Source: a bacterium (GTDB lineage Bacteria; SAR324; NAC60-12). Taken from it: a stretch of 56,613 nt of DNA. Of this stretch, positions 10,763 to 54,866 are shown piece by piece. Below the pieces are notes generated by a model, which was given only the letters and a program-made list of their open reading frames with translations, ran no database searches and had not been told where the DNA came from. The DNA lies in NCBI GenBank assembly GCA_965233585.1, contig CBDDTI010000523.1, positions 1-56,613 on the forward strand, given 5' to 3'. How positions within the stretch are numbered: the first letter of the stretch is position 1; each line of letters begins with the position of its first letter. The translations under genes and the position numbers were made by a program.

Positions 10763-11345
10763 AGAGAAATGTACCTACATCAGGCTCTTTCGAGCTTGAT
10801 GTAGGCACATTTCTTCTCAAAACACTCTCAAAACACCTTAAAACAGTCTAAAACGGGCTTTTAACCATCCGTTTACGCATGAAAACCATCTTAAAGCGCT
10901 CTCAAACCACCTTGATGGCATCTACATTGAGCCTGTTGCAGGCTCAATCGAGCCTGTTTTCGTCTGTAATCGGCCTGCAACCGGCTTGTTTTCGTCTGCA
11001 ATCGGCTTGCAACAGGCTCGATCTGTAATCGGCCTGCAACCGGCTTGTTTTCGTCTGCAATCGGCTTGCAACCGGCTCGATCGAGTTTTCGTCTGCAATC
11101 GGCTTGCAAGCCGATTACAGGCTCGATCGAGCCTGTTGCAAGCCGATTACAGGCTCAATCGAGCCTGTTGCAAGCCGATTACAGGCTCAATCGAGCCTGT
11201 TGCAAGCCGATTACAGGCTCAAGAGCCTGTTGCAAGCCGATTACAGGCTCAATCGAGCCTGTTGCAAGCCGATTACAGGCTCAATCGAGCCTGTTGCAAG
11301 CCGATTGCAGACGAAAACAAGCCGGTTACAGGCTTGTTGCAACAT
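10763..11345. repeat. AG-start hairpin plus fold-back tandem array; candidate Polinton left terminus or an independent element
   Basis: Starts AGAGAAATGTACCTACATC with a ~23-bp hairpin at about 10765-10813. Forward 53-bp-type units flip orientation at palindrome AATCGGCTTGCAAGCCGATT (about 11097-11116), followed by 32-bp units. Confidence 0.75.
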
Positions 11346-11612
11346 CTATTTTTCTCCATTGTCAAATTGTTCTCGATTTAAAAGCGCAAAGAAAGGTTCT
11401 AAGAATGAAAAATGTTTAAAAATTCCGTCCTTTTTGCTCCAAACCCGCTCAAATGTAATTTTTCAAACTCTAAATTTTAAAAAGAAGAATTTCCAAAGTT
11501 GTTTCTGATAAGACAAAAATTTGATCGCGCGTATCAAAGTTTTCATCCAATCCTGTTAAAAATTCAACTCACAGTCGTTTTCAACCGTTTCAATTATCAA
11601 GACATCTATTTT

Positions 11613-12197
11613 CTCATAGTTTTTTGATAAATGTGAGGGGTTAAATTTTTTAATTATAATTTATCTCTCACATTTATTTTAAAATTGTGAGTTTTTACTA
11701 CACTCAAGATAACTCCGAAGACCATCTTTATTTCTCATGCTTTTTTGACAAATGTGTGTAGGTCTAAATTTTTAAATTAAATTTGACCTGTCACATTTGG
11801 CATTAAAATTGTGAGCTATTACTCAACTCTAAAATCCGGACACTGCTTATCATCTCATGCTTTTTTTACTCTTGTACGGGTCTCATAATGTTTTATCATA
11901 TATGACACTCGCCACAAGAGTAATTAAATTGTGAGCAATTATTTAGCATAAACATCGTTAAATCACAGTCAACCTTCATCACATTTCATCATCAAGATCA
12001 ACGTCTTACACTTTTTTAACTTTTGTGCGCGATTTAAATCTTTAATTTTAATATTTGAATCCACATAAAAGTTACAAAATTGTGAGCAACTACTTCACTC
12101 CGAAAATGTTAACATCTAATCTTCATACTTTTTTGGCACTTGTTTAACTCCAAAATTTTTATTTATTTGGATTTGCTCAAGTACCATTAAATTGTGA
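11613..12197 (+). ncRNA. Array of five ~80-nt hairpins (candidate pri-miRNA cluster)
   Basis: Hairpins at 11613-11691, 11734-11815, 11854-11935, 12005-12086 and about 12123-12197. They share a basal CTCAT..TTTT / AAATTGTGAG stem, have different but complementary upper stems, and show G-U pairs on the plus strand. Confidence 0.55.
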
Positions 12198-12279
12198 TCA
12201 CCAACTCATCCAAATATTTGCCGAGCACGCTTTTATTTATTAGTTGGGTCTATGTTAAATGTTGTTTCAGTCGTGCAGC

Positions 12280-12663
12280 ATGTGTGGGCAAGTCAACAAC
12301 CAACCAACATCAGGATCGCCGCATAATTCTGACTGGGATTCTGGTCCTGACGAAGCCGGTATTTACAATACTTCAGATCCAACTCACATCGTGCATTGTA
12401 TGCGTCGCATTTCTGCTCATCTTCGCAGAATCAACGAGTCTTTGGAATCATTGGACAGTGAATTGGTAAACTACAGGACCTGTTTCAAAGACAAACTTCT
12501 TGGAAAACCTAATATTTCTGGCGACTCAGCCACCAGGTTGTGGTGGTATCGTGAAATCCAAAACGAACTAAAAGTGTTTCATTTTTATGCGTCTTTTTGC
12601 ATGAAATTGTTGTGCAAAGATTTTTGTTTGGAACAACACTCAGTTGATGGAGAAGAAGTATGA
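12280..12663 (+). CDS. Polinton hypothetical protein
   Basis: ATG at 12280 (MCGQVNN), 10 nt after a TTTCAG acceptor-like site; 127 codons; stop overlaps the next start (ATGA). Confidence 0.55.
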   Translation: MCGQVNNQPTSGSPHNSDWDSGPDEAGIYNTSDPTHIVHCMRRISAHLRRINESLESLDSELVNYRTCFKDKLLGKPNISGDSATRLWWYREIQNELKVFHFYASFCMKLLCKDFCLEQHSVDGEEV

Positions 12664-12983
12664 ACAACAACATTTGGTTAAAGATGAACCCAAATACACA
12701 TCAACGCTCAGAACCAAACCATCGTTTTGAAGAATTGGATCAATTTCATCAAGATTTGCCAAGATCTTCTAGCCTCAGCCGTTTTTACTCTGACCCTTGC
12801 ACTGATTTTTGTGCTGTGATTGGAATGATCTTTACTATGATTATCTCTATTTGTGCTTGTATATGGTTGATATCGGTATCAACTTGTAACGCTCTAAAAT
12901 CGCTTGCTTTAACAAATCGTACTTTAGAACTTTCTTTAGTAAATTTTACCAATAATTCATTGTTTTTAAATGATACGTTTTAA
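12660..12983 (+). CDS. Polinton small single-pass membrane protein
   Basis: Hydrophobic FCAVIGMIFTMIISICACIWLISV; C-terminal N-glycosylation sequons NRT, NFT, NNS and NDT; AATAAA right after the stop. Confidence 0.6.
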   Translation: MNNNIWLKMNPNTHQRSEPNHRFEELDQFHQDLPRSSSLSRFYSDPCTDFCAVIGMIFTMIISICACIWLISVSTCNALKSLALTNRTLELSLVNFTNNSLFLNDTF

Positions 12984-12994
12984 TAGAATAAAAT

Positions 12995-16251: not shown

Positions 16252-16971
16252 TTATTGCTCTAGACTTTTAAGACATCTGTATAAAGACATAACACTGACG
16301 CCTAAAATACGAGCCGTATTTTTGACGCTCGGATATAGTGCTCTTGTTTCTTTTAAAAAGGCATAAGCACATGCTGCTAATAAAGTCCTAGGAGCAAAAG
16401 AACTATTTTCATTTTTATTTAGTTTTTCTTTTATAGTTGTCATCTCTTGATAATTTAACTGTAGAGGCTGTAAAAAATATTCTGCCATATCTTTTGCTTT
16501 TATAGAATTTTCTGTTTTAATTGTGTTGGTCGAATCTTGTCTGTATAATTTTATCCATCGCCATACCGTTTTTGGGCTAATACCAATTTCCTGACACAAG
16601 TGACTTATTGGGCGGGGAATTTTTTCCTCTATTAAACTTTGATACAATGCCATAGCAATTAAGCCTTTTGGATTAATTTTAATTTTTCCATTTTTTTGAT
16701 AATGCCACGCTGCTATTTCTGACCACAAGTTAAAAATAGTGTTTGTAACATCATTATTTAAATGTAATTTATTACATAAATTTTTTAAAATATTTTTTTC
16801 CTTCTTTAAATGTTCGCTGTTTTGTTCAAATTCTTCATTTAAATTTTTTATTTTTTCCCATTTTGTTTCTAAATTTGGATCACAATATATTTTATCAATA
16901 ACTAAACCACACTCGGTGCACACTACGTCTCCTTGTCTGGTGTCTTCTATTATATATTGATGAATGCACAT
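16252..16971 (-). CDS. TFIIB: TFIIB-like transcription initiation factor
   Basis: N-terminal Zn ribbon CIH..IIEDTRQGDVVCTECGLVID; two cyclin-like repeats (LCNKLHL..., IPRPISHLCQEIGISPKTVWR, PRTLLAACAY...TARILGVSVMSLYRC). Confidence 0.9.
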   Translation of the reverse strand: MCIHQYIIEDTRQGDVVCTECGLVIDKIYCDPNLETKWEKIKNLNEEFEQNSEHLKKEKNILKNLCNKLHLNNDVTNTIFNLWSEIAAWHYQKNGKIKINPKGLIAMALYQSLIEEKIPRPISHLCQEIGISPKTVWRWIKLYRQDSTNTIKTENSIKAKDMAEYFLQPLQLNYQEMTTIKEKLNKNENSSFAPRTLLAACAYAFLKETRALYPSVKNTARILGVSVMSLYRCLKSLEQ

Positions 16972-17077: not shown

Positions 17078-17620
17078 TTATTCAGTTTTATATTTTTTCA
17101 GCAATTCAGAAATAATTTTTATTCCTTGTGTAGCGTCTTTTTCGCAGGAAGCTCCAATTATTACTATTTTTCCAGACGAAAATATTAAAGCAGAACACTT
17201 TTTTAATGTTAAAAACATTCCAGGAAATTTCTCAGAGTCGTATCTCTTTTGGATAATTTCAAAATCTACATTTAATTTCAAATTGTTGTAAAATGTTAAT
17301 AAATTGATTTTTGATGACATATGACACAAACAAGTCATGTTTTCTATTTTAAACTTTTCAGTAATAAATTTACTACTTATAACAAGTTTTAATTCGTCTA
17401 ATGCTTTTGGTATATGCTCTGTGGAAGGGATTTTAGTAATATTTACGTGGAAATTTCGATTTTGCTTTGTTTTAGTAAACACAATAAAAGAATATTTTTT
17501 TTTAACAACAGTAAAATTATTATAATGTTTTAGTACATTATCGGTATTAAAAGAAATTTTGTCACTGTCGATGAGACGAATTTTGCAACTGATTTTAACA
17601 TTGCTGACCATCACTTCCAT
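17078..17620 (-). CDS. TBP: TATA-binding protein (TBP)-like
   Basis: ATG at 17620. C-terminal repeat KIENMTC...INL...YDSEKFPGMFL....SALIFSSGKIVIIGA matches the TBP repeat consensus; the N-terminal repeat (VSNVKISC...FIVF...VNITKI) is diverged. Confidence 0.88.
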   Translation of the reverse strand: MEVMVSNVKISCKIRLIDSDKISFNTDNVLKHYNNFTVVKKKYSFIVFTKTKQNRNFHVNITKIPSTEHIPKALDELKLVISSKFITEKFKIENMTCLCHMSSKINLLTFYNNLKLNVDFEIIQKRYDSEKFPGMFLTLKKCSALIFSSGKIVIIGASCEKDATQGIKIISELLKKYKTE

Positions 17621-17626
17621 CTTGGT

Positions 17627-18985
17627 ATGGGCTTGCCTGACAAAAGCGGAATTGCTGGATTGGCCGTGGAACAAAACGATGGCACAGAAAGTGGTTTAGC
17701 GCTTCACGCACCCTTAGAAGTGGAAACGGGTCTATTGGAAGGGGCTCACGTTATTTACAATAGCGTGGCTTCTATCACCAACACCGGTCCGGTAGAATTT
17801 CTTGTTCCTCGCGACAACGAGTGTTCTTTTATACTGAGTCAAACCAGACTCAGTGGGCATTTTGTAGTGACAAATGATGACGGCGGCTTTGTCACGGAGG
17901 CAAGTAAAACCGCGTTGGTAAATCATTTTGCTGCTTGTTTATTCAGTCAAGTAGAAGTGTATTTGAACGGTGTTCAAGTAGCTGATTTAAGTTCGGCGGT
18001 CACCTACCCCTGGAGAATGTTTTTACAATCATATTTAAGTTACAATATTGACGTAAAAGACACTTATCTGGCTGCCGAAGGATATTATCCCGAAACTATA
18101 GACGAAGTTACCACCACCAAAATTACCGAAGAAGTTTCCTCTAATTCTTTGAAAAAAAGAAAGAATTTGATTTTAAACGGGAAAAAAGTATTTTTTAACT
18201 CGCGTATAGCTGTTGATCTGTTTGACACTGATCGATTCTTACCACCAAATGTGGATATCAAGATAAAATTGGTTAGATCGGCTGAAACATTTGGTTTGCT
18301 TCAAGATCCTGCAGCAGCAAAACCTTTCAAAATTGTGTTAAAAGATGTCAAATTGCATATGAGAAAAGTGTTGCCTACGTTGATAATACGAGAAAGTTTC
18401 AAAAACAAACTTTTAAAAGAACCGTGCTACCTGCCTTTTAGCTCTACACGTTTAAGACATTACGTTATTCCTCAAGGCGTGTCGTCTTTTAACATCGCTA
18501 ATATTGCTAATGGAACATTACCCAAACAAGTGTTTTTTGTGATGGTTCACAATCAGGCTATGTCGCATGCTCCCGACAAAAATCCTTTTAATTTTCAACA
18601 CTTTAATCTTTCCTCGTTTAATTTAAAAAAGAACGGGCAATGCGTATTTCCCAAACCTTTTCAACCTAATATTGAGGAGGGGGACGTTGTTGATTTGTAT
18701 CGACATTTATACGACAGTATAGGCATTTCGCACGGCAATCAGTCCATTGGCTTGACGTATGATGCTTTTATAAATGGAAGATTTTTTCTGGCGGCCGACT
18801 TGACACCAGATCAATGTAATTCGTACCACACTCATCCAGAAAATTATGGAAATTTAGATTTAGAGTTGGCTTTTTCCCAAATCACTCCCCATCCAATATA
18901 CGTTCTGGCCTTATCTATTTTTAACTCCGGTATTAAAATAGATCAATTTCAACAAGTAAAAGGAACCATAAAAGGAACCAATTAA
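17627..18985 (+). CDS. Major capsid protein (double jelly-roll, PY/hexon-like)
   Basis: SITNTGPVEFLVP, CLFSQVEVYLNG, DLFDTDRFLPPNVDIKIKLVR, GTLPKQVFFVMV, KNPFNFQHFNL and ADLTPD are Polinton MCP motifs; 452 aa. Confidence 0.93.
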   Translation: MGLPDKSGIAGLAVEQNDGTESGLALHAPLEVETGLLEGAHVIYNSVASITNTGPVEFLVPRDNECSFILSQTRLSGHFVVTNDDGGFVTEASKTALVNHFAACLFSQVEVYLNGVQVADLSSAVTYPWRMFLQSYLSYNIDVKDTYLAAEGYYPETIDEVTTTKITEEVSSNSLKKRKNLILNGKKVFFNSRIAVDLFDTDRFLPPNVDIKIKLVRSAETFGLLQDPAAAKPFKIVLKDVKLHMRKVLPTLIIRESFKNKLLKEPCYLPFSSTRLRHYVIPQGVSSFNIANIANGTLPKQVFFVMVHNQAMSHAPDKNPFNFQHFNLSSFNLKKNGQCVFPKPFQPNIEEGDVVDLYRHLYDSIGISHGNQSIGLTYDAFINGRFFLAADLTPDQCNSYHTHPENYGNLDLELAFSQITPHPIYVLALSIFNSGIKIDQFQQVKGTIKGTN

Positions 18986-22129: not shown

Positions 22130-25100
22130 TTATTTACAAATAGGGCATTTAGATGATTTGTTGTTGACAATAAGACAATTTCCTAGTGATAAAGTGTGAT
22201 ATCCGCAATTCAAAATGTGTCTTTTGGAATCCATTGCTGATAACGCAATCTTTCTTTGAAAACATGTCCGAATTTTATGATTCTTTGATCTTAAGTTTTT
22301 GAAAGATTTGTAAATTAGAACAGTCCGTTTCAGACATTTTTTGTAATCGTTATAGGTTAATTGCTTTTTTATGCTAGATTTTTTTAAACCTTTGCAAATT
22401 TTCTTTTCTTCTGTTTTGTTTTTGTCTGAAAAATCAGTAATTTTCATAGAATAACATTTTGGACGTAAGCCTATAAAGTGAGTAATAGCTGCTCTGCCTT
22501 TTAGTTCGTCTTTGAAATAAAAAAGCTGATTGGCTCTACTGTCATCGAAAAGAGGATGTTGTTTGGGGTACTTTGAAAAATCAAATATGTGCTCCAATTT
22601 TTTCATTTCCCTTTCCAAGTTGTTGCATCTTACTTTTAAAAGAAAAGAATCCGTGTCTGAGAAACATAAAGACACATTTTCTTCGCCAAAATGTTGTTGA
22701 ATCGTGTCATAATACGATCTGTACATAAACAACTTGGACAATTCCAAAATAGAAAATCCAACAGCTAAAGGCTTCCTGAGCTCTATTATTGCCGGCTTCT
22801 TGTTGACAGCCACCAAGTTTTCATTGATGATTTGAAAACTGTTGATGTGTTGACCAAGACTGGCTTTCCTTAAGCTCTGTTCATCACCACAAAGGACCAC
22901 TTCAGAGTAATTTCGAACATTTTCTGAAATGCAGAATAAGATTTATTTAATAAAGAAAATTGATTATGTGCGCAATCACCTCAGCTAACTAGCCGTCCCA
23001 TATCACATTTCATTTTCCTCTGTAATTAGCAATGTACTATAATTTACTTCAATTTGAAATCATTCCTTTTTTAAAGCCCGACATAAACGGACATCAAAAA
23101 TTCCAACAAAATAAACACTAAGTCAAAATGGATAAAAAAGATCAGGAAAAGAGCAAAGCTTTTTGGTTAAAAGTAATAGAATCAGCCCAGGAGGAGGCAA
23201 CTTCAAGTCCGACTTCTGGCAGTAGCTCTACCGGGGCTGCGGCTGGGGGAGCATGGTCATCTACTAAAACTGAGGGAGCATGGTCATCTTCTGGGGCTGC
23301 GGGTGGAGGATCATGGGCATCTTCCGAGCGTCCCGTGGCACCTGCTTGGCCATCACGGACTCCGTACAAGTCCGTCCCACAAAAATCAGGGTCGGAGTCG
23401 TGGAAGAGCGCATCTACTGCCGGGGTCGGGGGCGGAGGAGCATGGTCATCCACTAAAACCGGAGGAGCATGGTCATCTTCTGCGGCCTTGGGTGGGGAAT
23501 CATGGTCATCTTCCGAACGTCCCGTGGCACCTGCTTGGCCATCACGGACCCCGTACAAGTCCGTCCCACAAAAATCAGAGCGGGAGTCGTGGAAGAGCGC
23601 ATCTACTGTCGGAGCCGGGAGTGGGGGAGCATGGTCATCTACTAAAACTGGAGGAGCATGGTCATCTTCTGGGGCTGTGGGCGGAGGAGCATGGTCATCT
23701 GCTAAAAATGAGGGGGCATGGTCATCCACTAAAACTGCGGGAGCATGGTCATCTTCTGCGGCCTTGGGTGGGGGATCATGGGCATCTTCCGAACGTCCCG
23801 TGGCACCTGCTTGGCCATCACGGACCCCGTACAAGTCCGTCCCACAAAAATCAGGGTCGGAGTCGTGGAAGAGCGCATCTACTACCGGGGCTGGGGGCGG
23901 GGGAGCATGGTCATCCACTAAAACCGGAGGAGCATGGACATCTTCTGGGGCTGTGGGCGGAGGAGCATGGTCATCTGCTAAAACTGAGGGGGCATGGTCA
24001 TCTACTAAAACTGGAGGAGCATGGTCATCTTCTGCGGCTTTGGGTGGAGAATCATGGGCATCTTCCGAGCGACCCGTAGCACCTGCTTGGCCATCACGAA
24101 CCCCGTACAAATCCGTCCCACAAAGGTCGGAGTCAGAGTCACGAAAGCAGACCTCTCATCGCGTGTCATTTGATTTGTCTTCACAATCAACACAAAAATC
24201 TAAACCACAACCCTATACTCACGTGGAACCTTCACCAACACCAGAAGTGCGTCAAGTAACGGCATTTCCATCAGTGTGGTCTCCGTCTACAGCTCGAAAA
24301 GTTACAAAAAAAAATTAAAATTTAAATTTGATCATTTTTCTTTTTCTTTTTGATTACAAAATAAACACATCATTTTATAAAAATTGATTTTTCAAAAGTT
24401 TGCGTACTTGATTAATTCATTTTGCGAATTTTTAATTTAATATTGATTTAATATTATGAATATTTATGAGATAATTTGCTAATTAATATGTGAAGGTTTG
24501 GAGATTCATTTTCTAAAATTGACAAAACCATGCGGGAAAATTCAAAACAAATTTAGAGAAGGAAGAGGAGAAGGAGAAGGAAAAGGAAAATGGACAAGGT
24601 AAAGTTAGGAAGGATGAGGAGGGGGAAATACGAGGTGTTGAGGGCGAAATGGACGGAAGAGGAGGAGGAGGAGAAGTTCAAGCTGCTGCCGGACCCGCCA
24701 TTGAGCGAGACACCGCCGCGTCCACCACTGATGTGGGGCGGTGGCCGTTTTAGACGGCTTGCCAGAGGCTTGATCATGATGATCAGGACGGCCGCCGCCT
24801 CCGTCGCCGACTTTGTCGCCGGTCGTCCGGACGTCATCCCCACCGACGTCATCCCCGCCAACGTCATCCCCACCGACGTCAGCCCCGCCGACGTCATCCC
24901 CGCCGACGTCAGCCCCGCCAACGAAGCCGATGTTTCTGAAGATGACGATTTTGATGAGGCTAAGTGTGTGGTTGGTGCCGGCAGGACGTACTGCCGCAAC
25001 TGTCGCCGGTACCACCACGCACTTGTGCCTCAAAATTAAAGAAAAATACAAAAAATGACCCCAAATTCGTTTGAGTATTTAACAAATTCATTTTTTACAG

Positions 25101-28037
25101 AAAAATGGACTGCGTCAAATTACGCTTTTGCGTCTTTTACAATCTCAACATCATTAAATTATCTTATCTCAAAACTTACCAATAAATTTTCCAAAAGTAG
25201 AGTTGGCAAAAAGTTTAAAAAGCCGGAGTTCAAAGTCATTGCGAGCATTTGATCGCAGCTTTGTGACCTTTTCGATGAACTCCTTCAAAAAAGCTTTTTG
25301 TCGAAACTTCATGACTCTTCTTATCTTCAGCAACTTCATGCCCTTTTTCAAGTAGTACTGCAGGTTTTCCAGATGCACCACGTACTTTTTTCGGTCATAA
25401 AAAGTGCTCAACAATTTCTTGCTCCGGTATCTTTTGTTCCTATAATCTCGAGGACAGTGATGTTTCAGTAAACGGCGATTGTAAGGAGATAGATGTTTAA
25501 AAGAAACCGTGTCTGTATACGGAGCCAGCGGAAATTGATCGTGTGCCTGAAAATGATATCATGTAACTTGTCAAAACAATAAATAACGTATCACAACAAA
25601 GATCGGATTTACCTGGTGAAGATGAGAAGGATAATGCAAATCAACTTCGAACGCATATCCAGTATCGTCTTGCGAAGGAATGTTGATAATATCTTCGGCA
25701 GTCCATTTTTTAAATTCTGTTTTTGAAACCCATTGGAAATCAGAAACTGGTAATTTTAAAGTTTCCATACTCCCGTATAAGTTGTTGGCTGAAAAATTGT
25801 ACGGATCATAACAAAAATGATTTCATCAGATAATACAGTATAAAATTACCATCAATGTATAACAAGTGATCGCCGCTTTTTCTAGGATTGCTATTCCCTT
25901 TGGCATAACGCTGAGCGATAAAACTTTGCCCACCTCTGATACCCTTTGTAAAAAAACGCTCCATTTCAGGATCGGAATAGACATCTAATGATCCGAGGGG
26001 TTTGGAGGTTTCAGATTCGGATGTGAGCTTATTATCTGATTTAGCTTGTTCTGAATTTTGAAAGAACATAAGCATGACATCAAAACTCAAGCCAGGAATT
26101 CCTAATTTAGGTAGAACAAATTTAGTATTACGATACATCCAACAGTAAAGATTAAAGTTTACCTAGATAATAAACAGGATCCAATTGAAAATGTTCCATA
26201 ACCATTTTCCTGTACTGAAGAAATGCTTCACACAGCAAAACAACGTCTAAAGAACAATAGAGCATCATGTAATCCACCACATTCTTGCATTTGAACGATT
26301 TAAAGACTTCTTGAGCATGGGAATAATCCGCTTCCGTAATGTGTTCTTCGTTTAATTCAGAATAAAAAGAGTCTTTGGACGGAAGGTTTCGACTTTTCTT
26401 CATCTCTTGTAAAGATTGGAAATGTTCGTAACAAAAAACGCCTTTTCTTTTTAAAAGTTTTAAAGCTTTTGATTTTTGACGAACAGGAATTTTTTTATAT
26501 CTTTCCATTTGTTGTAAAATGGGAAAGGTAAAATTTGAGGTCTGATTCAAATCTTGAACAAGTGCATCTAGACTGCCAGAAATGTGCTCTAACGAATCTT
26601 GAATTTTAAATTTGCCCAATGTAAGAGTGCGAAACTTTTCACTGTTTTTTGCTAAGACTTTTACATTTTGCTTAAATTTGGAAACATTTAACTCTTCCAC
26701 GATTAAATGCAAATCGTATCTGAAACGCGTACATAATTTGTGTTAGTTTAATAAATAAACCCAATTAAGACTTCTTACCCTTGAGCGTTGTGGAAAAAAA
26801 TTGGTGTGTGAAAGGGGCCGGATCTCGTCAAGTTACACAGTGAATGAGCTGCGCCCATTATTTTCCCTGTCACGTGATCATGATCTAGAACTTTTCTGTA
26901 ATTTCTAGAGTACTTTTTGAATTGACCACCACAAATATGACAAACTTTTGCTTTTTGATACATTTGCCATTCTTGCGGACTAGATTGATTTTTAACAATA
27001 TGTCTGAATTTTTGTTTTCTTTCGTCAACAACTTTTTCATAGAAATGCATTCGATCCAAAAAATGTTTGGCTGCATCCTCTCCTACATATTCTTCTTGAA
27101 AAAATACCTCATCATTCGAATCCACAAAAAGCAAGCTATACCCCACTGGTCTATGCACGTTTATATCGTCACTGGTGGGAAAAGCACACAAACACTCAGT
27201 TTTTAAACAGAGTTGACATTTAGATCGTTCTTTGTTTCTTTGAAGTACACATTCAAAATCACAAAATCCAACAACAGGAGCATGAAATTTATGTTTATGA
27301 TTGGTAAAACTTATGGAGGAATTTTTACTTGGGTAGATAGCACGTTGTTTATCACAGCAAGTGTTTTCGTGTTTTTCTTTTTTAGATTTGGATCGAAAAT
27401 GAAGCAGACATTTTTCACAATAGATGTGCTTCTGTTGAGCTGCTTTTTTACCCGACAACAGTCCGGCCCGATTATTCAAAAAACCTTGGATTTTGGTAAT
27501 TTTAAAGAAATGGTGCTGTTGATTTAAATCCTTGATCTTTTTAAACTTGGAAGAAAAACCCAATTTGACATTAGAACTACAATTGACAATCTTTTTACAA
27601 GAAGATTTTTTCTTGCGTTGAATTGGTTTTGCAAGGCGAGAAAATGGAGATTCATTTTCAAGAGAGATTTCAGGATCATATTTTATCATTAACAAATTTA
27701 AAATGTTTTTGTTTCTGTTGTTGTTTTTATTAGTAAAAAAACCTAACTTTGAAACTTGACCTTCACTCTCATAAAAAACTGAAATTGAAATTGGTAAATG
27801 GGAGTTTCTATTTAAGAATTTTTTTAAATTACAAAATTGAAGAGGGAATTTGAAACCTCTTATATTAAACTTTTTAAGATACTTTATCGGCATTTGACGA
27901 AAATCAACAACGGAAACCGTTTCCTCAGGAAAAAGATGTCTAATGTACAGATAAAGAAAATTGAATTTATCGTAACGAGTTTTCCATTCCAAGCAATTAG
28001 ATCTCTTTAAATCACGTGGAATTTCTATAAAATCCAT
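22130..28037 (-). CDS. polB: Protein-primed DNA polymerase B, six exons (1134 aa when spliced)
   Basis: Exons 28037-26779, 26719-26163, 26101-25850, 25788-25613, 25546-25180 and 22923-22130 total 3405 nt in one open frame. GT-AG splicing rebuilds HNAQGYDLH, YYLGIPGLSFD, YIDANNLYG, HQAHDQFPLAP and KLFANSTFGKFIENVR. Also has DFEC (ExoI), DTDS and an EndoVII-like CHIC...DHDH...HSLCN insert. Confidence 0.92.
23128..24318 (+). CDS. Ser/Gly/Trp repeat protein nested antisense in pPolB intron 5
   Basis: 396 aa, ATG in AAAATG context; many GGAWSS units and four SERPVAPAWPSRTPYKSVPQ blocks; AATAAA at about 24360. Confidence 0.75.
   Translation: MDKKDQEKSKAFWLKVIESAQEEATSSPTSGSSSTGAAAGGAWSSTKTEGAWSSSGAAGGGSWASSERPVAPAWPSRTPYKSVPQKSGSESWKSASTAGVGGGGAWSSTKTGGAWSSSAALGGESWSSSERPVAPAWPSRTPYKSVPQKSERESWKSASTVGAGSGGAWSSTKTGGAWSSSGAVGGGAWSSAKNEGAWSSTKTAGAWSSSAALGGGSWASSERPVAPAWPSRTPYKSVPQKSGSESWKSASTTGAGGGGAWSSTKTGGAWTSSGAVGGGAWSSAKTEGAWSSTKTGGAWSSSAALGGESWASSERPVAPAWPSRTPYKSVPQRSESESRKQTSHRVSFDLSSQSTQKSKPQPYTHVEPSPTPEVRQVTAFPSVWSPSTARKVTKKN
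24590..25039 (+). CDS. Hypothetical protein nested in pPolB intron 5 (P-A/T-D-V repeats, Cys/His C-terminus)
   Basis: 149-aa GC-rich ORF with AT-rich flanks; 15-nt tandem repeat at 24825-24920; ends CRNCRRYHH. Confidence 0.55.
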   Translation: MDKVKLGRMRRGKYEVLRAKWTEEEEEEKFKLLPDPPLSETPPRPPLMWGGGRFRRLARGLIMMIRTAAASVADFVAGRPDVIPTDVIPANVIPTDVSPADVIPADVSPANEADVSEDDDFDEAKCVVGAGRTYCRNCRRYHHALVPQN

Positions 28038-28089
28038 TTCCAAAGTTTATTTGAAATTTTTTTGAATAAAACAAAATAAGTTTATTAAA

Positions 28090-33167: not shown

Positions 33168-33634
33168 GACGGGTTTGGGTGTTGATGTCAATTAAACAAA
33201 ATTTTAATTTAGAATGAGGATTTCAAATTATGGAATTTGTGATTTTTATTTATATAATAAAAATTTCGGTCAAAACGCGCTCTTCTACATATTTATTATA
33301 AATAAGAAACGATTTTGACTGTTTATACTATGCATATAATATTGTACATTTAAATGCACATTGCGCGCAAAATCAATGAATTGTTTGCATTGACAGCATT
33401 GCATGAATTGAATGTAAAGGAACGAAAGACACGCGCTAAAAAAAAAAATAAGACATTGTACGTCAAATCAATGAATTGTTTGTTTTATTACGTAAAAAAG
33501 AATCATTGGTATTATTATTAACATTCACATAATATATTTGATAATGATATTCAAATAAAGCAAATAAACCAAGTGTCATACATAAAAAGCACAAACAACT
33601 CAATAGCCCAGGCGAAACATCATCTTCTACATAA

Positions 33635-34168
33635 TGAACCGAAAGCCCAAGACTGGGTGTTAGCCTGGACTGTCTACCTCGTGATAATTATCTCTTTGCT
33701 GCCTCTGTGTACTGTGCTCTATCTCTGTGTAAATGTTTGTTTCTCTCCTCCCCTTTTGCCGGTGGAGGAGTCTTTCACTTTCTCATGAATACTGTCATAT
33801 AGTGTAAATAAATGAGTTGATTCACGGACAGGAAACAGGAAAGACGTGTCTCAACAGAAGGAATTGACTTTCAGAATTCTTTCATAATTCTTACAATTAT
33901 CTTGTGATTGTTTGGTGATTGTTTTGTGACTAAATCCTCTTTCATCAGGGATACGATTCATTCGGAAACCTTTGATTGAGATCGAGTTACTCAAGGTGTA
34001 GCCGATTCCTCCGTGCTTAAGCACACTTAAGGCCACGGAGGACCGGCCTTCGCAGTAGGTCCCGGATTACATTCTCTTTGTCCTTTCAGCCAAGTTCACT
34101 CATCCGGAACCCATAAGGCCGGACTCGTCTACGCCCCAGAACCAACCGGAAAGGGCCGGTTCGGTTCA
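33635..34168 (+). repeat. 5' LTR (534 bp)
   Basis: TG...CA ends with a 9-bp inverted repeat; AATAAA inside; directly repeated at 42200. Confidence 0.95.
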
Positions 34169-34170
34169 TA

Positions 34171-34181
34171 TGGTGGCAGCG
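34171..34181 (+). promoter_or_regulatory. Primer binding site, tRNA-Leu type
   Basis: TGGTGGCAGCG, 2 nt after the LTR, is complementary to the tRNA-Leu 3' end CGCTGCCACCA; same PBS at 4655 and 55233-55243. Confidence 0.8.
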
Positions 34182-36426
34182 CTGTGCCCTTCTCTCTTTT
34201 TCCGGGGGGAGGTGTACAGGGCGTACCCCGTCACCGGAGAACGCCTCTGCACGCCCAGGCTACCAACCAAAAGACTAAGTATCGTTTGATGATCAGTCTT
34301 AATTCCGGTAATCCGTCCAATTTGTTCAAATTTCGTGTTTAAAATTCGTAATTGTTCCAAATGATCAAATCGTGATCCGAATAATCCGTTCCGTCGTTTC
34401 AATTCTAACCGAATCATCCATTCATTTTATTCCAAATTCCATTGCCATTAGGTACCATTTCGTCCTTTTTCGTATAAGTTTGTCCAGAATTAAATTGTTT
34501 AGTTGTTTCAGGTGCTCAAAAGTCACCTCCATGGCCTAACGGCCTAAGAGGAGGTAGAGGAACCGGTGCAGAATGATACAGGAATGTTGCAACAAGGCTC
34601 ATCATCATCATCATCATCAATCCCAATCCCATCATCATCCTTATCCCAATCCACCATCATCAGCGTCCCCATCATCATCATCAACCCAATCATCATCCTT
34701 CTCCCAACCACCATCATCATCCCCATCATCATCATCGTTACATCATCATCATCATCAACAGCAACATTCAGATAAGATTCAATTAAGGTTAAAGAATTAG
34801 TCAGGGTAGAAGGATTAGAAAGAATTAGTCAGAGTAGAGGGATTAGTAGGAATTAGTAGGACGCTGGGGCTCCGAGCCAACAAAGCCGGGGTCGGGTCAC
34901 CAATGCCAAGAGGTTTGGGGCTCCTTGCCGATTAGTAGAGCGTCTGGCAGGGTAACTTAAGGATGTTGGGCTCTGAGCAGGAGGCTAGAGCGCCGGAGAG
35001 CATCGCCCAGCGCGGGCATTAAGTGTGAGGGCCCTGGAAGAGGGTTGGGATCACCGATGTCATGAGGGTCGGGTTCCTTACGGTAAGCACGCAACTCTAG
35101 TGTGTTGGGGTCTCGAGGGAGCGAGATCAGGGTCCAGCTTCTCCCAGACAGGAGCTGGATGCCTTGCCTGTAGGCGCGAGGCTGTGGCAGGTCCCGGGAG
35201 GGGACGAAGTCAAGGACTCCATGAATTCCCCAGCTTGGCAGCCTCTGTCCAAGAGCAGATGGTGGCATCACATGTGGCCCGGAATTGCAGCCAGTTAGAG
35301 TAATAAAAGTGTGAATTTCGCATCCTGTCATAAAACCACAGGAAGGAGTTAATGTGCACAAATGTGTCCCACAATGGTAAAATTATGAGATTTGCATCCT
35401 GTTGTAAAATCACAGGGTAATGATTGTCATAAGGAAATTTCACACACAATTGCAACTGGCCACATTGTGACATCTGCTGGACAATTCCCTTTTGGGGGGA
35501 CTCCAAGCCCGGGAACATCGGGAGAGAAGCTTCACCACAGTCGTGAGAGAGTTGTTTTGACCAAACCAAACGCGCTGGGGAGTTATCAGTGTACTTCAGT
35601 GTACGTAGCAGAGGCTACCTGGGGAATTAGACTAGGGAATTAGCGGTTAACACACGTGGGGAATTATTGGCCATAACAGCCATGTGGCCAGGAAATTGTG
35701 ATATCAGAATTAACAAGGGGTGGAGAAATTCACAGGAGGATAAAATGTTAAAATAAGACAGTAAAGAAACCGCGGGAAATGGAATTCACATGACAATAAA
35801 ATTCAGTTAGTTCACATGGTAATCAAAAATCCTCAGTCAAGATAATGCCGGTCATAAAGTTGTCATGATAACGGAAATCCCATTGAGGTGGGAACTTTGA
35901 TTAATCACTCACATGTGAAAATTAGAAAGAAACCACATGGGAGGAAGTCCCATACCCCTTCTATTATCATCTGGACAGCAGTCCAACACCACCTTGGAGC
36001 ACAAACCTGGTATCAAATCATTCTGTATTCGACCTCTACCTCGACAGCACCTTCCAACAATTAAAAGTTGTCTTCCAAAATCTCTGACTGTGAAGTCAAA
36101 TTTCCAAAACTTGTGCAACTCAAATTGATTTCCCAACTTAGGAACTTTCATCAACACGGTAAGCCTTAACCTTAAACAAACTTAAGGGCATTGTCAAGTC
36201 AGAGAATCCAAGGCCCTTGTGTCTCATCTACCAGGGTAGGCCCTTCTGGGCTGCGGCTTGACCGCCGGTGAAGTCTTGGTCTTTTGGTTCAGCCTCAAGC
36301 CACGAACTTCAATTCGTACGAATCTCGTAGGGAATAAGGGAACCCTACCCTTATTAGTGGCCAGTCACCACGACCTGGCTTTGTAAACCAAAGATAATCT
36401 AACACTGTTCTTGTAATACTGTAGAA

Positions 36427-37139
36427 ATGCCGGGTACCGGGCGATCACGACGTCACCCCTACTTGGACGGGGCCCCCTACTTCTACATCGGGGAAAACTT
36501 CCGCGCCTGGAGGGCCCAGTTTGACGCTCTCCACGACATGAGCGGTGGCCTGACCGCACCGCCCGACGGTACGCCAACGCGTGCATGCAGGACTCCGCCC
36601 AAGATGCTATCCGGGATATCACCCTTGCCGGGCCTCGGAGTTGTGCCGAGATGTTGGATGCTTATGAGGAACGATTCCAACTCCTCGACGACCTGGTCCG
36701 GATCCGCATGCGGGAAGAAGGACTTCTCCGAGCACCCCGCCACCTACGTGGACCCGGCGGGAAGAGAAAAAGCCGCCTGAAACCCCGGGCGAAACGAGGA
36801 ATCATGACCCCGGTAGCTCGCCCACTTGCCCCGTGGGATACCGGCAATGGCGTTCGGAGGGAGACTGCCAGGGGATCGTGGGAGCCTTCCACCGCCGAAG
36901 AAGTCCAGAGAGAGATCATCCACTCCCGGGTACGCGCTCTACTGCGAGACCAACCCCAGCCTAGTGTTGAGGACTTGCAGATCTTCACTCGTATGCCGTC
37001 ACAATCCTCGTCGTCAGGGTCACCCCGGGTCCTCCCGCTCACCTCCTCTGCAGGGTCGTCCGCGAGTGACACACCACACCATCCCTGGGCCGGACCCAGC
37101 CACCGGAGCGACGAACCGGATTTTCAGTCAGGACAGTAG
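36427..37139 (+). pseudogene. gag: Mini-Gag (capsid N-terminal part only) with one frameshift near 36530
   Basis: YFYIGENFRAWRAQFDAL / RHERWPDRTARRYANACMQDSAQDAIRDI aligns with the family gag; no zinc knuckle; ends DFQSGQ* like the family's DFQKGQ*. Confidence 0.75.
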
Positions 37140-37181
37140 ATCTAAGGGTCCGTCCCTACTGTCCTTTCCCTCACCGGACCC
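37118..37181 (+). promoter_or_regulatory. Putative -1 ribosomal frameshift signal (G_GAT_TTT plus H-type pseudoknot)
   Basis: Slippery heptamer 37118-37124, 6-nt spacer, stem 1 GGACAGTAG/CTACTGTCC, stem 2 GGGTCCG/CGGACCC; the -1 frame is open to 41893. Confidence 0.7.
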
Positions 37182-37327
37182 GTCCCCCCGAGCGTAATTC
37201 CCCGAGGGAGATTACTGCTCAGAGAGCCCTGCCGACTTCCAATGATCGCCTTCCCTTACAGGACCGACCTAGCCTAACCCCCGCAAGAAGAACGGGTGGT
37301 CAAGTAGAGCCACCACCCGAGCCCCCG

Positions 37328-40300
37328 ATGGACCCAGAGTGTTGCCCATACGTGGACGTGAGTGTGGGGGTGAAGCTGTTTGACCATCGTGGGGGTTCGC
37401 AGAAGTCCCGGCTTCTCCACTTCGTGAAGTCGCGCGCGGACCATCATTGTGTCCCTGACCACGACCAATCGCTGCCGGCCGCTTCCAAACCCTGCCTTCG
37501 TCGGACGCCCAGGAGGACCTGGGAGGAGTCTCATGTCCGGGCATTGATCCAAGCGGCCCCGCTGACCCAAGTTCCTTCTCCAGGAGCCGTAAGAAGGCCT
37601 CAGCCTTTTGTTCCGCCTACCGCCCGGAATAGTCACTCCACCGGTCCCCGCATACAACACCTTAACATGATCCGGAAATTAAGGTCACCAGGGCCCCAAG
37701 ATTACCGGGCCCCTCGTCGTCGGAACTCCGCAGAAGAAGAGCTGGGAGACATCCCCTTGGAGCCCTCACGCGCTCCAACCTATTGGCTCCGGGTGGATCC
37801 TGGTCATTACGGCTGCTACCTGTACGGACGGAAGAGATTCATGGAGTGTGCGGGAACAATACGAAGATCTCGTCCACGCGAGAAAGAATTAGAGGCATCC
37901 GACAGTGCTTCCCCAGTCTCTACTCTCTCCCCCAGTGCCAGAGACGGAATCAATTCGAAGACCCTTCTGATCATGAATCCGATTCAGTGTGCCAGTATTA
38001 TAATTGTGACCTTGTGCCTCTGCCTGACACGTAGACCTGACCACAATACAACCGTGTCTGCCTGCAATCTGGCAGTAAATGATCATGAACTTAGAAGAAT
38101 ATTGACGTGCGGTTACCACCAGTGTAGTCTCGGCCCGAGCACTCCAGAAAGGAGCGCGCCTTGTCTTGTGCCCTGTTACCCCCGATATGAAATTCCTCTC
38201 GGGATTCGGGAAGTGAACCTTCTTCCCTTCCTGGGTGCCCCGGTGGTGTGCGCTGTTCCCTTTAGTGAAGTTGTTCCCTCTTGTGTAGAACTAGCAGATG
38301 TCTACTCCTCCCTTGTGTCCAGCCCGCCGTTCGCAGTTCTGGGGACCGAATTGGACATCTTTTGCCGAAGGGTGGATTCACCCCGCCGCACCGAGGTGAA
38401 GGGGAAGATCCCCGCTCCAGGAGCAAACCGACCAGGTGTAAGAGGGTCAAAGAAAGGGATCCCCACGAGAGGACTCAACTCGCTCCCCCCAACGATGTTA
38501 GGGAACCGGATGATTGCGGAGGACTTTCCCACGTCAGTAACGAAGCGGACCTCTCCTTCCATTGGCAGGGTCGACGCAGACGTCCACATCTCTCTCTGTG
38601 AATGTGACCGGGTGAGAAGAATCCCCGCTGGAGTAAGAAGGATAAATCAATCCTGGACAGCGGGGACGAAAAGAGTGGTCCCCTTTAGAAGATGGATTCA
38701 ACCATGTGTCGCTGGTGCAACCGGGTCGAAGGAAGTGACCCCCGTTGGGAGGGTAAACCGATCGTGTACTACTCCCGGTAACACCGAGTGTGAAGGAGAG
38801 TGCGAGGAGGCCAGCATCCTCGGTCTCCCCTTTAGGTTCGAGAGTCGCTGTCCGAAACGAGATGCCGTGAGAAGAGCCAGGGTGTCTTCAAACTTTCCAG
38901 GAACTGGGACGAGGAGAGGGCGCAACCGGTGCCCCGGGAGAGGAGTCTCTCCGCCTTCCTCAGGACTCGGGGCGTGGTCAGATCGCCACGGTGGGGATCG
39001 CGTCGCAAACTTCATACCCCCTTGCTGTGATTGGGGTCCTATTATTGTTGTAGCAGTTGAACAAAGTGATCTCGTAAGTCCCCTTCTGTATCATCGGTCT
39101 CATCTGTTCTTTCTTCTCCCAGATCTCACCGTGACCAATCTGTTGCGTTGGAAAGACATAGCCCTGCTTCATCGATCCACGTTAGGTTGGGAGAAACAAG
39201 CGCTAGGGACTCCACGAGGATCAGATACCGTTCCGATCTCGCCCGGGACGGTCATCAAAGCTACGACCTTACTCCAGTTCGCGTCTTCAGGTGCCCCACC
39301 GTTGTCCGCTCCCCTCACATCCTCACCCACGGGCGATATGGACGTTCGAGCCAGCTGTTTGGCCCTTCTCCTGGGATTAACCCTCACTGCGTCAACCAGC
39401 CACTTCCATCGGAGTGCCACCCTGGGGTCTTTGGTGGGACTCGTCCCTACTGTCTCCACCAACCGTTTCACCCTCCAGAATGGGTATGGCACTGTGGAAG
39501 CACGGTTTCACCTCACCGCGTACGACTGCTCTGACCCTTCAGAAGTGCAGGCGTACAGCAGTATCCCGGCCAGCCATTGCAGCACCCGGGCTACCCCCGT
39601 AAAGAAGGATCGACCCACGCGGTTCCAGCTCCTGCAAAAGGAAAGGAAAAGGTATATCAACGCCTATGTCTGCTCTCTTTATAGGACTGACATTCGGTAT
39701 AACTGCGGCGTGTATGGACACCCAGAACTGGACCCTATGCACTGGTCCTTCTTGATTCCGCAACGGGTGACGGTGGAACAGTGCCTGGAATGGCTCCGCA
39801 CTCGGACCTATCGGCCGGCGTATCATTCCACCATGATGCACGGGAAGGAGTTCACGCAGCCCGTCCTGATCGACGAACCCACTTATATCACCTACCTCGT
39901 GTACGGGCGAACTTTTCTTCAGGCTCCTGCCTTGCCCACTGACCTCGTGACGGACATCGCCTGCCAGGGAGAATGGTACGAATATCAGCCTGACAAGCCG
40001 CAGAACCACATCGTGGCCTTCTACGATGAACTACACCTTCAGACTGTGACCTTGGTTGTCGAGGAGGAGAAAGTCATCGACAAGGGTCGTCAGCTCTCTC
40101 TGCCTTGCCCCTGGAACGATGGACACTGCCATGCAGAAGGACTGACCTACCTGTGGAATGTCACCGGGCCTGAATACTGCCCCGTTGCAGTTGTCAAGGA
40201 GTTCTTGGGACACCGGCTGCACGCCAACGTGTCCCAGTCCGGCGATTCCTATGATTCACATCATGCGGAGGCCATCGTGAGTGCGGAGACTGAGGAGAAG

Positions 40301-41893: not shown

Positions 41894-42199
41894 GAGCTGC
41901 TCCAGGACCGAAGGGAGCAAGAGGAGGAATTGTGGAGAAAAGATGAAAAGCCAGATGGCCCTCAGACTTTACCAATTCGAGAGCTACCTTCTCCTTGTCT
42001 CAGTGTGAAGAGACCATTCCGGGAAAACATTGTGTCAAGACCTGTAGTGATCCGAAGAAATGTAGAGTGAAAATTTTGCGAAAAAGGACGCTGAAATTGA
42101 TGTATTATGTTCTGGTGTCACGAGAAAGACCTCATCGGAAAATTTGACTGGGAAATGGTGTGAGTTCGTCCAGGTTGGCCTCACTCAAGGAGGGGCAAA

Positions 42200-42721
42200 T
42201 GAACCGAAAGCCCAAGACTGGGTGTTAGCCTGGACTGTCTACCTCGTGATAATTATCTCTTTGCTGCCTCTGTGTACTGTGCTCTATCTCTGTGTAAATG
42301 TTTGTTTCTCTCCTCCCCTTTTGCCGGTGGAGGAGTCTTTCACTTTCTCATGAATACTGTCATATAGTGTAAATAAATGAGTTGATTCACGGACAGGAAA
42401 CAGGAAAGACGTGTCTCAACAGAAGGAATTGACTTTCAGAATTCTTTCATAATTCTTACAATTATCTTGTGATTGTTTGGTGATTGTTTTGTGACTAAAT
42501 CCTCTTTCATCAGGGATACGATTCATTCGGAAACCTTTGATTGAGATCGAGTTACTCAAGGTGTAGCCGATTCCTCCGTGCTTAAGCACAACTTAAGGCC
42601 ACGGAGGACCGGCCTTCGCAGTAGGTCCCGGATTTCATTCTCTTTGTTCTTTCAGCCAAGTTCACTCATCCGGAACCCATAAGGCCGGACTCGTCTACGC
42701 CCCAGAACCAACCGGAAAGGG
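42200..42721 (+). repeat. 3' LTR missing its last 13 bp
   Basis: Near-identical to 33635-34155; lacks the terminal CCGGTTCGGTTCA. Confidence 0.95.
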
Positions 42722-54615: not shown

Positions 54616-54866
54616 CACCTGCACATCTGGTGTTCGAAATTTTCGGTCAAGTACAAATATTTCAGTAAAGTATGAATTTTTTGATAAAGTATGAAAATCA
54701 TAAAGTATGAATATTTCGGTTAAGTACGAAATTTTCGTACTTTACCAAAAAATTCATACTTTATGATTTTCATACTTTACCAAAAAATTCGTACTTTACT
54801 GAAATATTCATACTTTACCGAAAATTTCGTACTTCACCAAAAATTCGTACACCAGATGAACAGGTG
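54616..54866. mobile_element. Palindromic MITE with CAC...GTG ends and a 5-bp TSD (Transib-like)
   Basis: CACCTGCACATCTGGTG ... CACCAGATGAACAGGTG; TSD CTTGG at 54611-54615 and 54867-54871; internal inverted ~19-bp AAGTA(T/C)GAA repeats. Confidence 0.85.

Follow-up and report, generated by a model that had tools for sequence, protein, structure and literature searches.

Five tandem hairpins just inside the left end of a Polinton/Maverick-like element as candidate precursors of small RNAs

The window considered here, i.e., the whole 56,613-nt stretch of DNA that was analysed, contains what looks, judged by its sequence, like an endogenous and partly decayed Polinton/Maverick, and just inside the left end of this Polinton/Maverick-like element five hairpins of ~80 nt follow one another in tandem on the + strand. 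Five such hairpins on this strand had been described at this place in an earlier note on the same DNA, which was confirmed, and the stem halves quoted there are present. The features of the left end, with the minimum free energy (MFE) of each hairpin core on the + strand, are:

10767..11365, unstranded: left terminal repeat region, with arrays of 53-59-nt units followed by oppositely oriented 32-nt units
11613..11691, + strand: hairpin u1, with an 11-bp basal stem, a 2x2 U.U internal loop, a 16+5-bp upper stem and a 10-nt loop; core MFE -31.5 kcal/mol, 32 pairs, 5 G.U
11734..11815, + strand: hairpin u2, a close paralogue of u1, the upper stem being common to both; core MFE -25.2 kcal/mol, 32 pairs, 3 G.U
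11854..11935, + strand: hairpin u3, with its own upper stem; core MFE -29.7 kcal/mol, 32 pairs, 3 G.U
12005..12086, + strand: hairpin u4, with its own upper stem and the basal 5' arm CTTAC; core MFE -24.9 kcal/mol, 34 pairs, 3 G.U
12122..12198, + strand: hairpin u5, the weakest unit, with its own upper stem and a basal 3' arm ending in GTGAT; core MFE -19.7 kcal/mol, 25 pairs, 2 G.U, the minus strand folding about equally well
11692..12121, + strand: the four inter-hairpin spacers of 42, 38, 69 and 35 nt, G-poor, C-rich and partly alike
12280..12663, + strand: ORF1, the first gene downstream, conserved in sibling elements
12660..12983, + strand: ORF2, overlapping the stop of ORF1
12987..12992, + strand: AATAAA, four bases past the stop of ORF2 and the first on this strand after 9646

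The terminal arrays form a large palindrome centred near 11103, and a second, diverged copy of the left half of this palindrome is found at 337-799, where it breaks off at the point that matches the palindrome centre; a search of the window for a terminal repeat on the right-hand side gave none. The hairpin cluster lies 250-830 bp inside the terminal arrays and is non-coding, with no stop-to-stop frame of more than 48 codons in the hairpin region. A tRNA scan gave no hits, and a scan for bacterial-type promoters was uninformative, with six found against 6.6 expected and no terminators. Relatives of ORF1, a frame of 134 codons as listed, are found in 23 database clusters at 64-97% identity, and because the eighth codon is a nearly invariant (second) methionine, the start of this gene is likely at 12280.

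The earlier assignment of the element to the Polintons is in line with its hallmark proteins, namely a double-jelly-roll capsid, an A32/FtsK-type ATPase, an adenain-like protease (a weak match, E = 0.006), an rve integrase with a chromodomain further right, and a remnant of the protein-primed PolB. The latter is reduced to a single 129-codon frame at 25169-25558, which scores 26.2 bits against a cut-off of 25.8, hence this copy of the Polinton is partly decayed. A TFIIB-like zinc-ribbon/HTH protein, a TBP-like protein, zinc-finger proteins and an endonuclease-VII-like domain are encoded as well. A database search with the capsid gave 177 relatives, among them an 84-member cluster with 97% identity, and the named ones are distant and come from an annelid, a beetle and a wasp; its nearest atlas clusters carry the double-jelly-roll family on 15-24% of their members and are commonest in arthropods and echinoderms. 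The element is flanked by BEL/Pao and LTR retroelements, and among the atlas neighbours of the Pao protein arthropods are the commonest group. The BEL/Pao and LTR elements and the capsid relatives point to an animal as the host, probably an arthropod. Among prokaryotic genome contigs, the capsid profile gave 319 pattern matches, none of which was confirmed, and a degenerate hairpin pattern gave 11 single bacterial matches, which is about the number expected by chance; nine of these scored 18.8-26.2 bits (E up to 1) and the other two lower, compared to 78-87 bits for the true units.

Each hairpin opens with CTCAT, CTTAC or TTCAT, followed by an invariant run of at least six T, and closes with the invariant AAATTGTGA followed by G or T, so that both the 9-nt basal 3' arm AAATTGTGA and the T6 run are found in five of five units. 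The starts of the units are 121, 120, 151 and 117 nt apart, and a basal stem of 10-11 bp is common to all of them, as is a conserved small U-rich internal loop 11-13 nt above the basal junction. In u4, the wobble positions are swapped in the pairing between the basal 5' arm, CTTAC, and the invariant GTGAG. All units fold as single hairpins with 5' arms of 33-40 nt, loops of 4-11 nt (small in the MFE folds of u3, with 6 nt, and u4, with 4 nt) and 25-34 pairs, and across the five MFE structures the largest internal loop is 2x2 and the bulges comprise 1-2 nt. Folded as + strand RNA with short flanks, u1 to u5 reach -32.2, -25.7, -30.2, -26.0 and -19.7 kcal/mol, with z-scores from -8.7 to -4.9, and not one of 200 dinucleotide shuffles per unit was as stable as the native sequence. 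The upper-stem pairs quoted in the earlier note are perfectly complementary in four of the five units, and that of u5 contains one C.A opposition. When the 925-nt leader is folded as a whole, u1, u3, u4 and u5 stay intact and u2 keeps its upper stem; the spacers are mostly unpaired in the centroid of this fold, and the MFE structure pairs some spacer segments over long range. Together with the 60 nt after u5, the spacers (244 nt) contain 9% G and 25% C. As a separate observation, a crude census of hairpins over the whole window, which was too permissive, counted 195 loci on the + strand and 161 on the minus strand; among the + strand loci listed with a GC content below 0.35, -24 kcal/mol or lower was reached only in four of the five units and in a palindrome at 54.6 kb.

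Comparison of the units with one another indicates that all five derive from tandem duplication, with a basal stem that has stayed almost invariant and upper stems that have diverged with compensating changes. The spacers can be partly aligned too, hence the whole unit of ~120 nt was duplicated in tandem. u1 and u2 are recent duplicates, and only this youngest pair is detected by Tandem Repeats Finder (period 123, 80% matches). As a control, the 5' half of each unit was joined to the 3' half of every other, and in 19 of these 20 off-diagonal chimeras the fold reached only -7.3 to -19.8 kcal/mol, compared to -19.7 to -31.5 kcal/mol for the native hairpins, which, together with the compensatory changes, upholds the earlier description of upper stems that differ and yet remain complementary. 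The sole stable chimera (-34.2 kcal/mol) combines the 5' half of u1 with the 3' half of u2, as these two still have a common upper stem; there are thus four distinct upper stems rather than five, and of the different seeds that had been proposed for the five units, four distinct stems stand, with u2 a close variant of u1.

When the whole window was searched, with filters off, for matches to a covariance model of the five units, the units scored 78-87 bits on the + strand and their own reverse strands 20-45 bits, and the best unrelated match, with 22.6 bits, was a separate palindrome at 54.7 kb, so that neither a sixth hairpin nor a solo copy was found in the window by this search. A search of the window for the 10-mer AAATTGTGAG with up to one mismatch likewise gave no further unit, its matches being the five units and three one-mismatch chance matches. 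RNAalifold recovers 24 alignable pairs, seven of which carry double-sided changes. In the model-fitted alignment, 87.5% of 120 cells are paired and 12 cells in seven pairs are changed on both sides, values that are supportive rather than conclusive, given that the alignment was fitted to the structure and leans towards it, and that it consists of five paralogues of one locus, two of them near-duplicates. None of 500 column shuffles reached the observed paired fraction, cell count or covariation score, and when the partner is slid by 1-3 columns, pairing falls to 40-53%. Overall, the comparison indicates that the hairpin structure is under selection.

With regard to the strand on which this selection acts, the + strand MFE structures contain 16 G.U pairs compared to two A.C or C.A oppositions, i.e., positions that would be G.U on the minus strand, which agrees with the earlier observation that G-U wobbles favour a + strand RNA. 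When cells common by descent are removed, about 12 independent G.U events stand against two A.C events (hand count), and the binomial tails, likewise calculated by hand, are ~7e-4 for 16 of 18 and ~7e-3 for 12 of 14. The base composition of the region predicts no such bias (GxT 0.047, AxC 0.053). Under RNA parameters, the energies of all five cores add up to -131.0 kcal/mol for the + strand and -97.5 kcal/mol for the minus strand, which puts the + strand ahead by 33 kcal/mol, whereas the DNA parameters give -62.4 and -63.2 kcal/mol, respectively, with -8.5 to -16.4 kcal/mol for the individual DNA hairpins. The minus-strand hairpins have 3-9 fewer pairs per unit. The earlier note had asked for each unit to be folded on both strands; the + strand is favoured as RNA by four of the five units, and u5 is neutral, folding about equally well on either strand. 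Of the 56 G residues in the hairpins, 54 are paired, and the C-rich, G-poor spacers are the opposite of what a + strand mutational bias from C to T and from A to G would leave behind. The basal stem points the same way: its invariant 3' arm consists mostly of G and U, which have two possible partners each, and its 5' arm varies at four of seven positions, three of the variations being transitions that keep the pairing via wobble, and in u4 a C-G pair and a U.G pair have changed places between two positions. This pattern is the expectation under selection on a + strand RNA helix and has no rationale for duplex DNA or a cruciform. Taking all RNA-level readings together, the cluster quite probably functions as a structured RNA of the + strand.

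How such an RNA could be transcribed is indicated by the signals around the cluster. The AATAAA at 12987-12992 is likely the poly(A) signal of a transcription unit that could extend over the hairpins and both ORFs. On the minus strand, six AATAAA lie within 11673-12241, and by our own estimate about two would be expected upstream on the + strand from composition, hence the absence of the hexamer there is no more than consistent with a single + strand unit that includes the hairpins and the two genes. On the + strand, the 8-mer TCACAGTC precedes both u1 and u4 by 35-37 nt, with four matches in total in the window compared to 1.3 expected, and may mark transcription starts or may represent remnants of the repeat unit. 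The TCAGT at 12266-12270, which we take to be an arthropod initiator-like motif, could provide a core promoter just before ORF1; if this promoter is real, the hairpins would lie outside the ORF1 mRNA and would need a start of their own upstream. An intronic location of the cluster, suggested earlier from a TTTCAG acceptor, found no support, the hexamer occurring 57 times in the window compared to 55 expected; the copy in question lies 10 nt before the conserved start of ORF1 and could just as well belong to the initiator-like TCAGT. A reading of the units as a promoter array was also rejected, as none of the 18 element ORFs inspected has the conserved motif in the 90 nt before it.

The reading that we put forward, tentatively and with somewhat less than even confidence, is that the cluster comprises polycistronic precursors of miRNA-type small RNAs, made from the + strand. 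The hairpins would lie in a non-coding leader, with the left terminal repeats on one side and the first + strand genes, ORF1-ORF2, on the other, and a host RNA polymerase II transcript would read through them. The Microprocessor (Drosha/Pasha) would count ~11-13 bp upwards from the conserved junction at the base of each hairpin, to the vicinity of the U-rich internal loop, and its cut would release pre-miRNAs of ~55-60 nt, from which Dicer would then generate ~22-nt duplexes out of the variable upper stems, yielding four distinct guide families. If ORF1-ORF2 are on the same transcript, cleavage would also switch both off in cis. Drosha cleaves ~11-13 nt above the basal junction, which is about where the U-rich internal loop sits, and some animal lineages do without the Microprocessor sequence motifs. 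In the available part of PMC6298569, the identifiers of a pri-miRNA are given as a stem of ~35 bp, a mismatched GHG, a basal UG, an apical UGUG and a downstream CNNC, and the sequence motifs are presented there as helpers described for human substrates, not as universal requirements. The earlier claim of a Drosha substrate geometry stands as far as the stem is concerned, since the 33-40-nt arms and the 10-11-bp lower stem fit the length of ~35 bp without large internal loops that is given in this part of PMC6298569; it does not extend to the vertebrate/human-defined sequence motifs, as a basal UG is present in none of the five units and an apical UGU or GUG in one. A CNNC follows within 12 nt downstream in four of five units, which is uninformative as the spacers contain 25% C.

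Searched with Rfam 15 at gathering thresholds, the whole window gave no matches, and in relaxed mode the best match in the hairpin region reached 26.8 bits compared to cut-offs of 71-100, all matches being to generic miRNA-hairpin models. The lack of an Rfam family, the missing vertebrate motifs, the strand-neutral u5 and the small loops of u3 and u4 all count against the miRNA reading, and a site for a sequence-specific protein would also be compatible with the strict invariance of AAATTGTGA and of the T6 run. A further step, which is possible yet rather doubtful, is that this Polinton family carries its own small-RNA genes as a modular array, in which a fixed basal scaffold is combined with diversifying upper stems that supply new guides, and in which cleavage might toggle ORF1-ORF2. 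No report of a miRNA encoded by a Polinton, Maverick or adintovirus was found in the full-text literature outside subscription journals and supplements.

Several known systems resemble the cluster in part. The miRNA cluster of bovine leukemia virus (BLV) likewise places about five hairpins within ~600 nt of an integrated virus. The ends of the BLV pre-miRNAs are set by initiation and termination of RNA polymerase III, as stated in the available part of PMC4378190. The BLV hairpins are of a ~55-nt shRNA type, whereas the stems of the Polinton are ~35 bp long and their lower stem makes them Drosha-type; moreover, a BLV-type origin from Pol III is unlikely, as all five units have the invariant T6-T7 run within the 5' arm, where it would stop Pol III before the hairpin is complete. 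A T5 run follows u1 only. Further parallels are the miRNA clusters of nuclear dsDNA viruses such as the herpesviruses, which use the canonical Drosha/Dicer route (PMC3534370, PMC4378190); the likeness lies in the several tandem hairpins of ~80 nt on one strand of a non-coding stretch beside genes, with a stem length fitting the Microprocessor. The candidate Polinton hairpins differ from such viral clusters in that they are paralogues with an invariant basal stem and diversified upper stems and have no Rfam match. Duplication of whole repeat units with their flanks, each containing one hairpin, is also seen in the tandem arrays of mir-430 and C19MC; however, it is usually the mature or seed region that is conserved in these, whereas the Polinton cluster has kept its basal scaffold constant and has diverged in what would be the mature region.

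The strongest rival of the miRNA reading is a structured, protein-binding leader RNA without small-RNA output. The hairpins would then be + strand RNA structures that are not small-RNA precursors, acting as cis elements in the ORF1-ORF2 leader or as a separate ncRNA, and a protein bound via the invariant basal stem would influence stability, export or translation, or the RNA would serve as a decoy for dsRNA sensors in the manner of a VA RNA. All the RNA-level evidence applies equally to this alternative, the invariance of the 9-nt 3' arm and of the T6 run in five of five units suggests sequence-specific recognition, the vertebrate Microprocessor motifs are absent, and the hairpins lie upstream of, and on the same strand as, the conserved gene ORF1. 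We nevertheless regard it as unlikely, since protein-binding hairpins usually conserve loops and bulges, whereas here the loops and upper stems vary most, since five stable hairpins with 33-40-nt arms in a 5' leader would block scanning ribosomes, and since the length of ~35 bp would have no obvious reason. The VA RNAs are ~160-nt Pol III transcripts of the adenoviruses, which are relatives of the Polintons; they are non-coding elements like the Polinton hairpins, which show no match to the VA family or any other family in Rfam. Another RNA-level alternative, to which we assign very little probability, is that the hairpins are substrates of the siRNA pathway (hairpin RNAs of the Dicer-2 type) that silence the element or its competitors, on behalf of the host or of the element. 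Stable, near-perfect stems in a multi-copy transposon, and the Dicer-2 siRNA pathway that arthropods possess, would suit this, but known hairpin-RNA genes are far longer than ~35-bp stems and a conserved basal junction is unnecessary for Dicer-2. In addition, the window outside the cluster contains nothing that extensively matches or complements any of the arms, the best being 17 of 19 bases in an A/T loop, and since no arm matches beyond A/T-rich loops, siRNAs against the element or its neighbours are unsupported.

Alternatively, the units could act as DNA, forming hairpins in displaced single strands, cruciforms or iterated protein sites for replication, packaging or recombination. The position close inside the terminal repeat arrays is suggestive of this, as are the direct orientation of the fivefold invariant motif, the equal folding of both strands under DNA parameters and the HTH and zinc-finger proteins and endonuclease-VII-like domain encoded by the element; protein-primed replication from the left end would, furthermore, displace the + strand, and adenoviruses have packaging repeats just inside the left terminal repeat, although these are short DNA motifs without compensated stems. 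A DNA role nevertheless seems improbable, because it offers no reason for the 16:2 bias of G.U pairs or for the RNA advantage of the + strand of 33 kcal/mol. The energies of the DNA hairpins are modest, cruciforms need both strands folded and the minus strand loses 3-9 pairs per unit, and the sites of one protein would need no unit-specific, compensated upper stems; the motif occurs nowhere else in the element, including the 18 upstream regions inspected, and the spacings of 121, 120, 151 and 117 bp are not helically phased. The baculovirus hr elements, which the earlier note had offered as the alternative, share with the cluster tandem, AT-rich imperfect palindromes in non-coding DNA of an arthropod dsDNA virus. 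Taking hr palindromes to be enhancers or origins with one common sequence at several genome loci, this likeness is disfavoured by the unit-specific compensated cores, the G.U bias, the asymmetry in RNA energy and the single locus in the window. Still less probable, and in our view quite unlikely, is a neutral tandem foldback (MITE-like) repeat without function, with a palindromy that is inherited or kept by templated repair at the DNA level. It would fit the repetition of the whole ~120-nt unit including spacers, the partial decay of this Polinton copy, in which only a PolB remnant is left, and the ease with which AT-rich DNA forms hairpins; however, had u3, u4 and u5 diverged neutrally to the depth observed, the pairing would have been lost, whereas each unit retains 25-34 pairs and each arm fits only its own partner. 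Templated homogenisation of the arms would, moreover, give perfect palindromes without an excess of G.U, and the search with the covariance model gave no solo copies in the rest of the window.

Most of the miRNAs known to be encoded by viruses come from herpesviruses, polyomaviruses, a few retroviruses and some insect DNA viruses. The Polintons, which are abundant in animal genomes, are thought to lie near the root of several groups of eukaryotic dsDNA viruses. If the miRNA reading is true, the cluster would contain the first miRNA-type genes of the Polinton/adintovirus lineage, within the known class of virus-encoded miRNA clusters. The element could then manipulate transcripts of the host or of rivals from an integrated and mostly silent state, and Polintons would spread ready-made miRNA genes around the genomes of their hosts. 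The locus itself provides a clean natural example of a hairpin scaffold that stays constant as its payload changes.

The five paralogous hairpins (u1-u5, plus strand) are preceded by terminal repeats and followed by genes of the partly decayed Polinton that carries them, and retroelements lie both upstream and further downstream.

Features around the five hairpins
10767-11365, terminal region of tandem arrays, 53-59-nt units followed by 32-nt units in reverse orientation
~11344-11361, ACATCTATTTT-CTC-like stretch, resembling the flank and basal arms of the hairpin unit
~11556-11573, TTAAAAATT-CAACTCAC stretch, with the same resemblance
16252-16971 and 17078-17674, minus strand, adjoining TFIIB-like and TBP-like genes, respectively
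24300-28046, minus strand, PolB-remnant and endonuclease-VII-like region
33633-42497, LTR retroelement with two direct repeats of 300 nt each, 100% identical
44256-47973, minus strand, BEL/Pao retrotransposon genes (Peptidase_A17, integrase H2C2, DUF5641)
54632-54832, AT-rich palindrome, its arms 100 nt long, separated by 1 nt and complementary at 91%

From the terminal arrays to u1, a stretch of 250 nt (11343-11612) includes pieces similar to the flank and basal arms of the ~120-nt duplicated unit, and these pieces may be decayed additional units; the covariance model built on u1-u5 gave them no score when run over the whole window. The 8-mer TCACAGTC is found on the plus strand at 11569-11576 and 11963-11970, 35-37 nt upstream of u1 and u4, and these are two of its four matches in the window, as against 1.3 expected. 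It may be a transcription-start mark or else a leftover of the repeat unit.

Taken together, the arrays of the terminal region make up a palindrome of ~400 bp with its centre near 11103, and its left half has a second copy, 76% identical, 10.4 kb upstream (337-799). This copy ends at the point equivalent to the palindrome centre, and the sequence beyond the break is unrelated and in part retroelement-like. At its outer edge, the terminal region also has a separate short, near-perfect palindrome (10767-10812), which on both strands folds as a hairpin with energies from -39 to -42 kcal/mol (90-nt windows).

Among the element's genes, the TFIIB-like one encodes a protein with a zinc ribbon and HTH. 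Database relatives of the TBP-like protein number 41; the best 32 of these are unnamed, ~120-200 aa long and 40-98% identical to it, with cellular-looking relatives only among the distant matches. It seems unusual for a Polinton to encode such a pair. Protein-primed PolB is recognisable in one frame only (129 codons, 25169-25558), the neighbouring frames being short and having no recognised match, and a 422-codon ORF (26775-28043) carries the endonuclease-VII-like domain. GC-rich tandem repeats with units of 276 nt and 15 nt occupy 23.2-24.9 kb.

The LTR retroelement is a young insertion, as its direct repeats are identical, and a fusion glycoprotein domain of the Monjiviricetes type (E = 2.7e-43) is encoded within its 1521-codon ORF; a degraded related copy lies at ~4.5-5.9 kb. 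For the BEL/Pao genes, arthropods are commonest in the nearest atlas clusters, the protein-cluster neighbours used for host inference. The AT-rich palindrome is made up of 19-nt and 35-nt repeats; besides the u hairpins, it is the sole low-GC hairpin of very high stability among the plus-strand loci listed in a hairpin census of the whole window.
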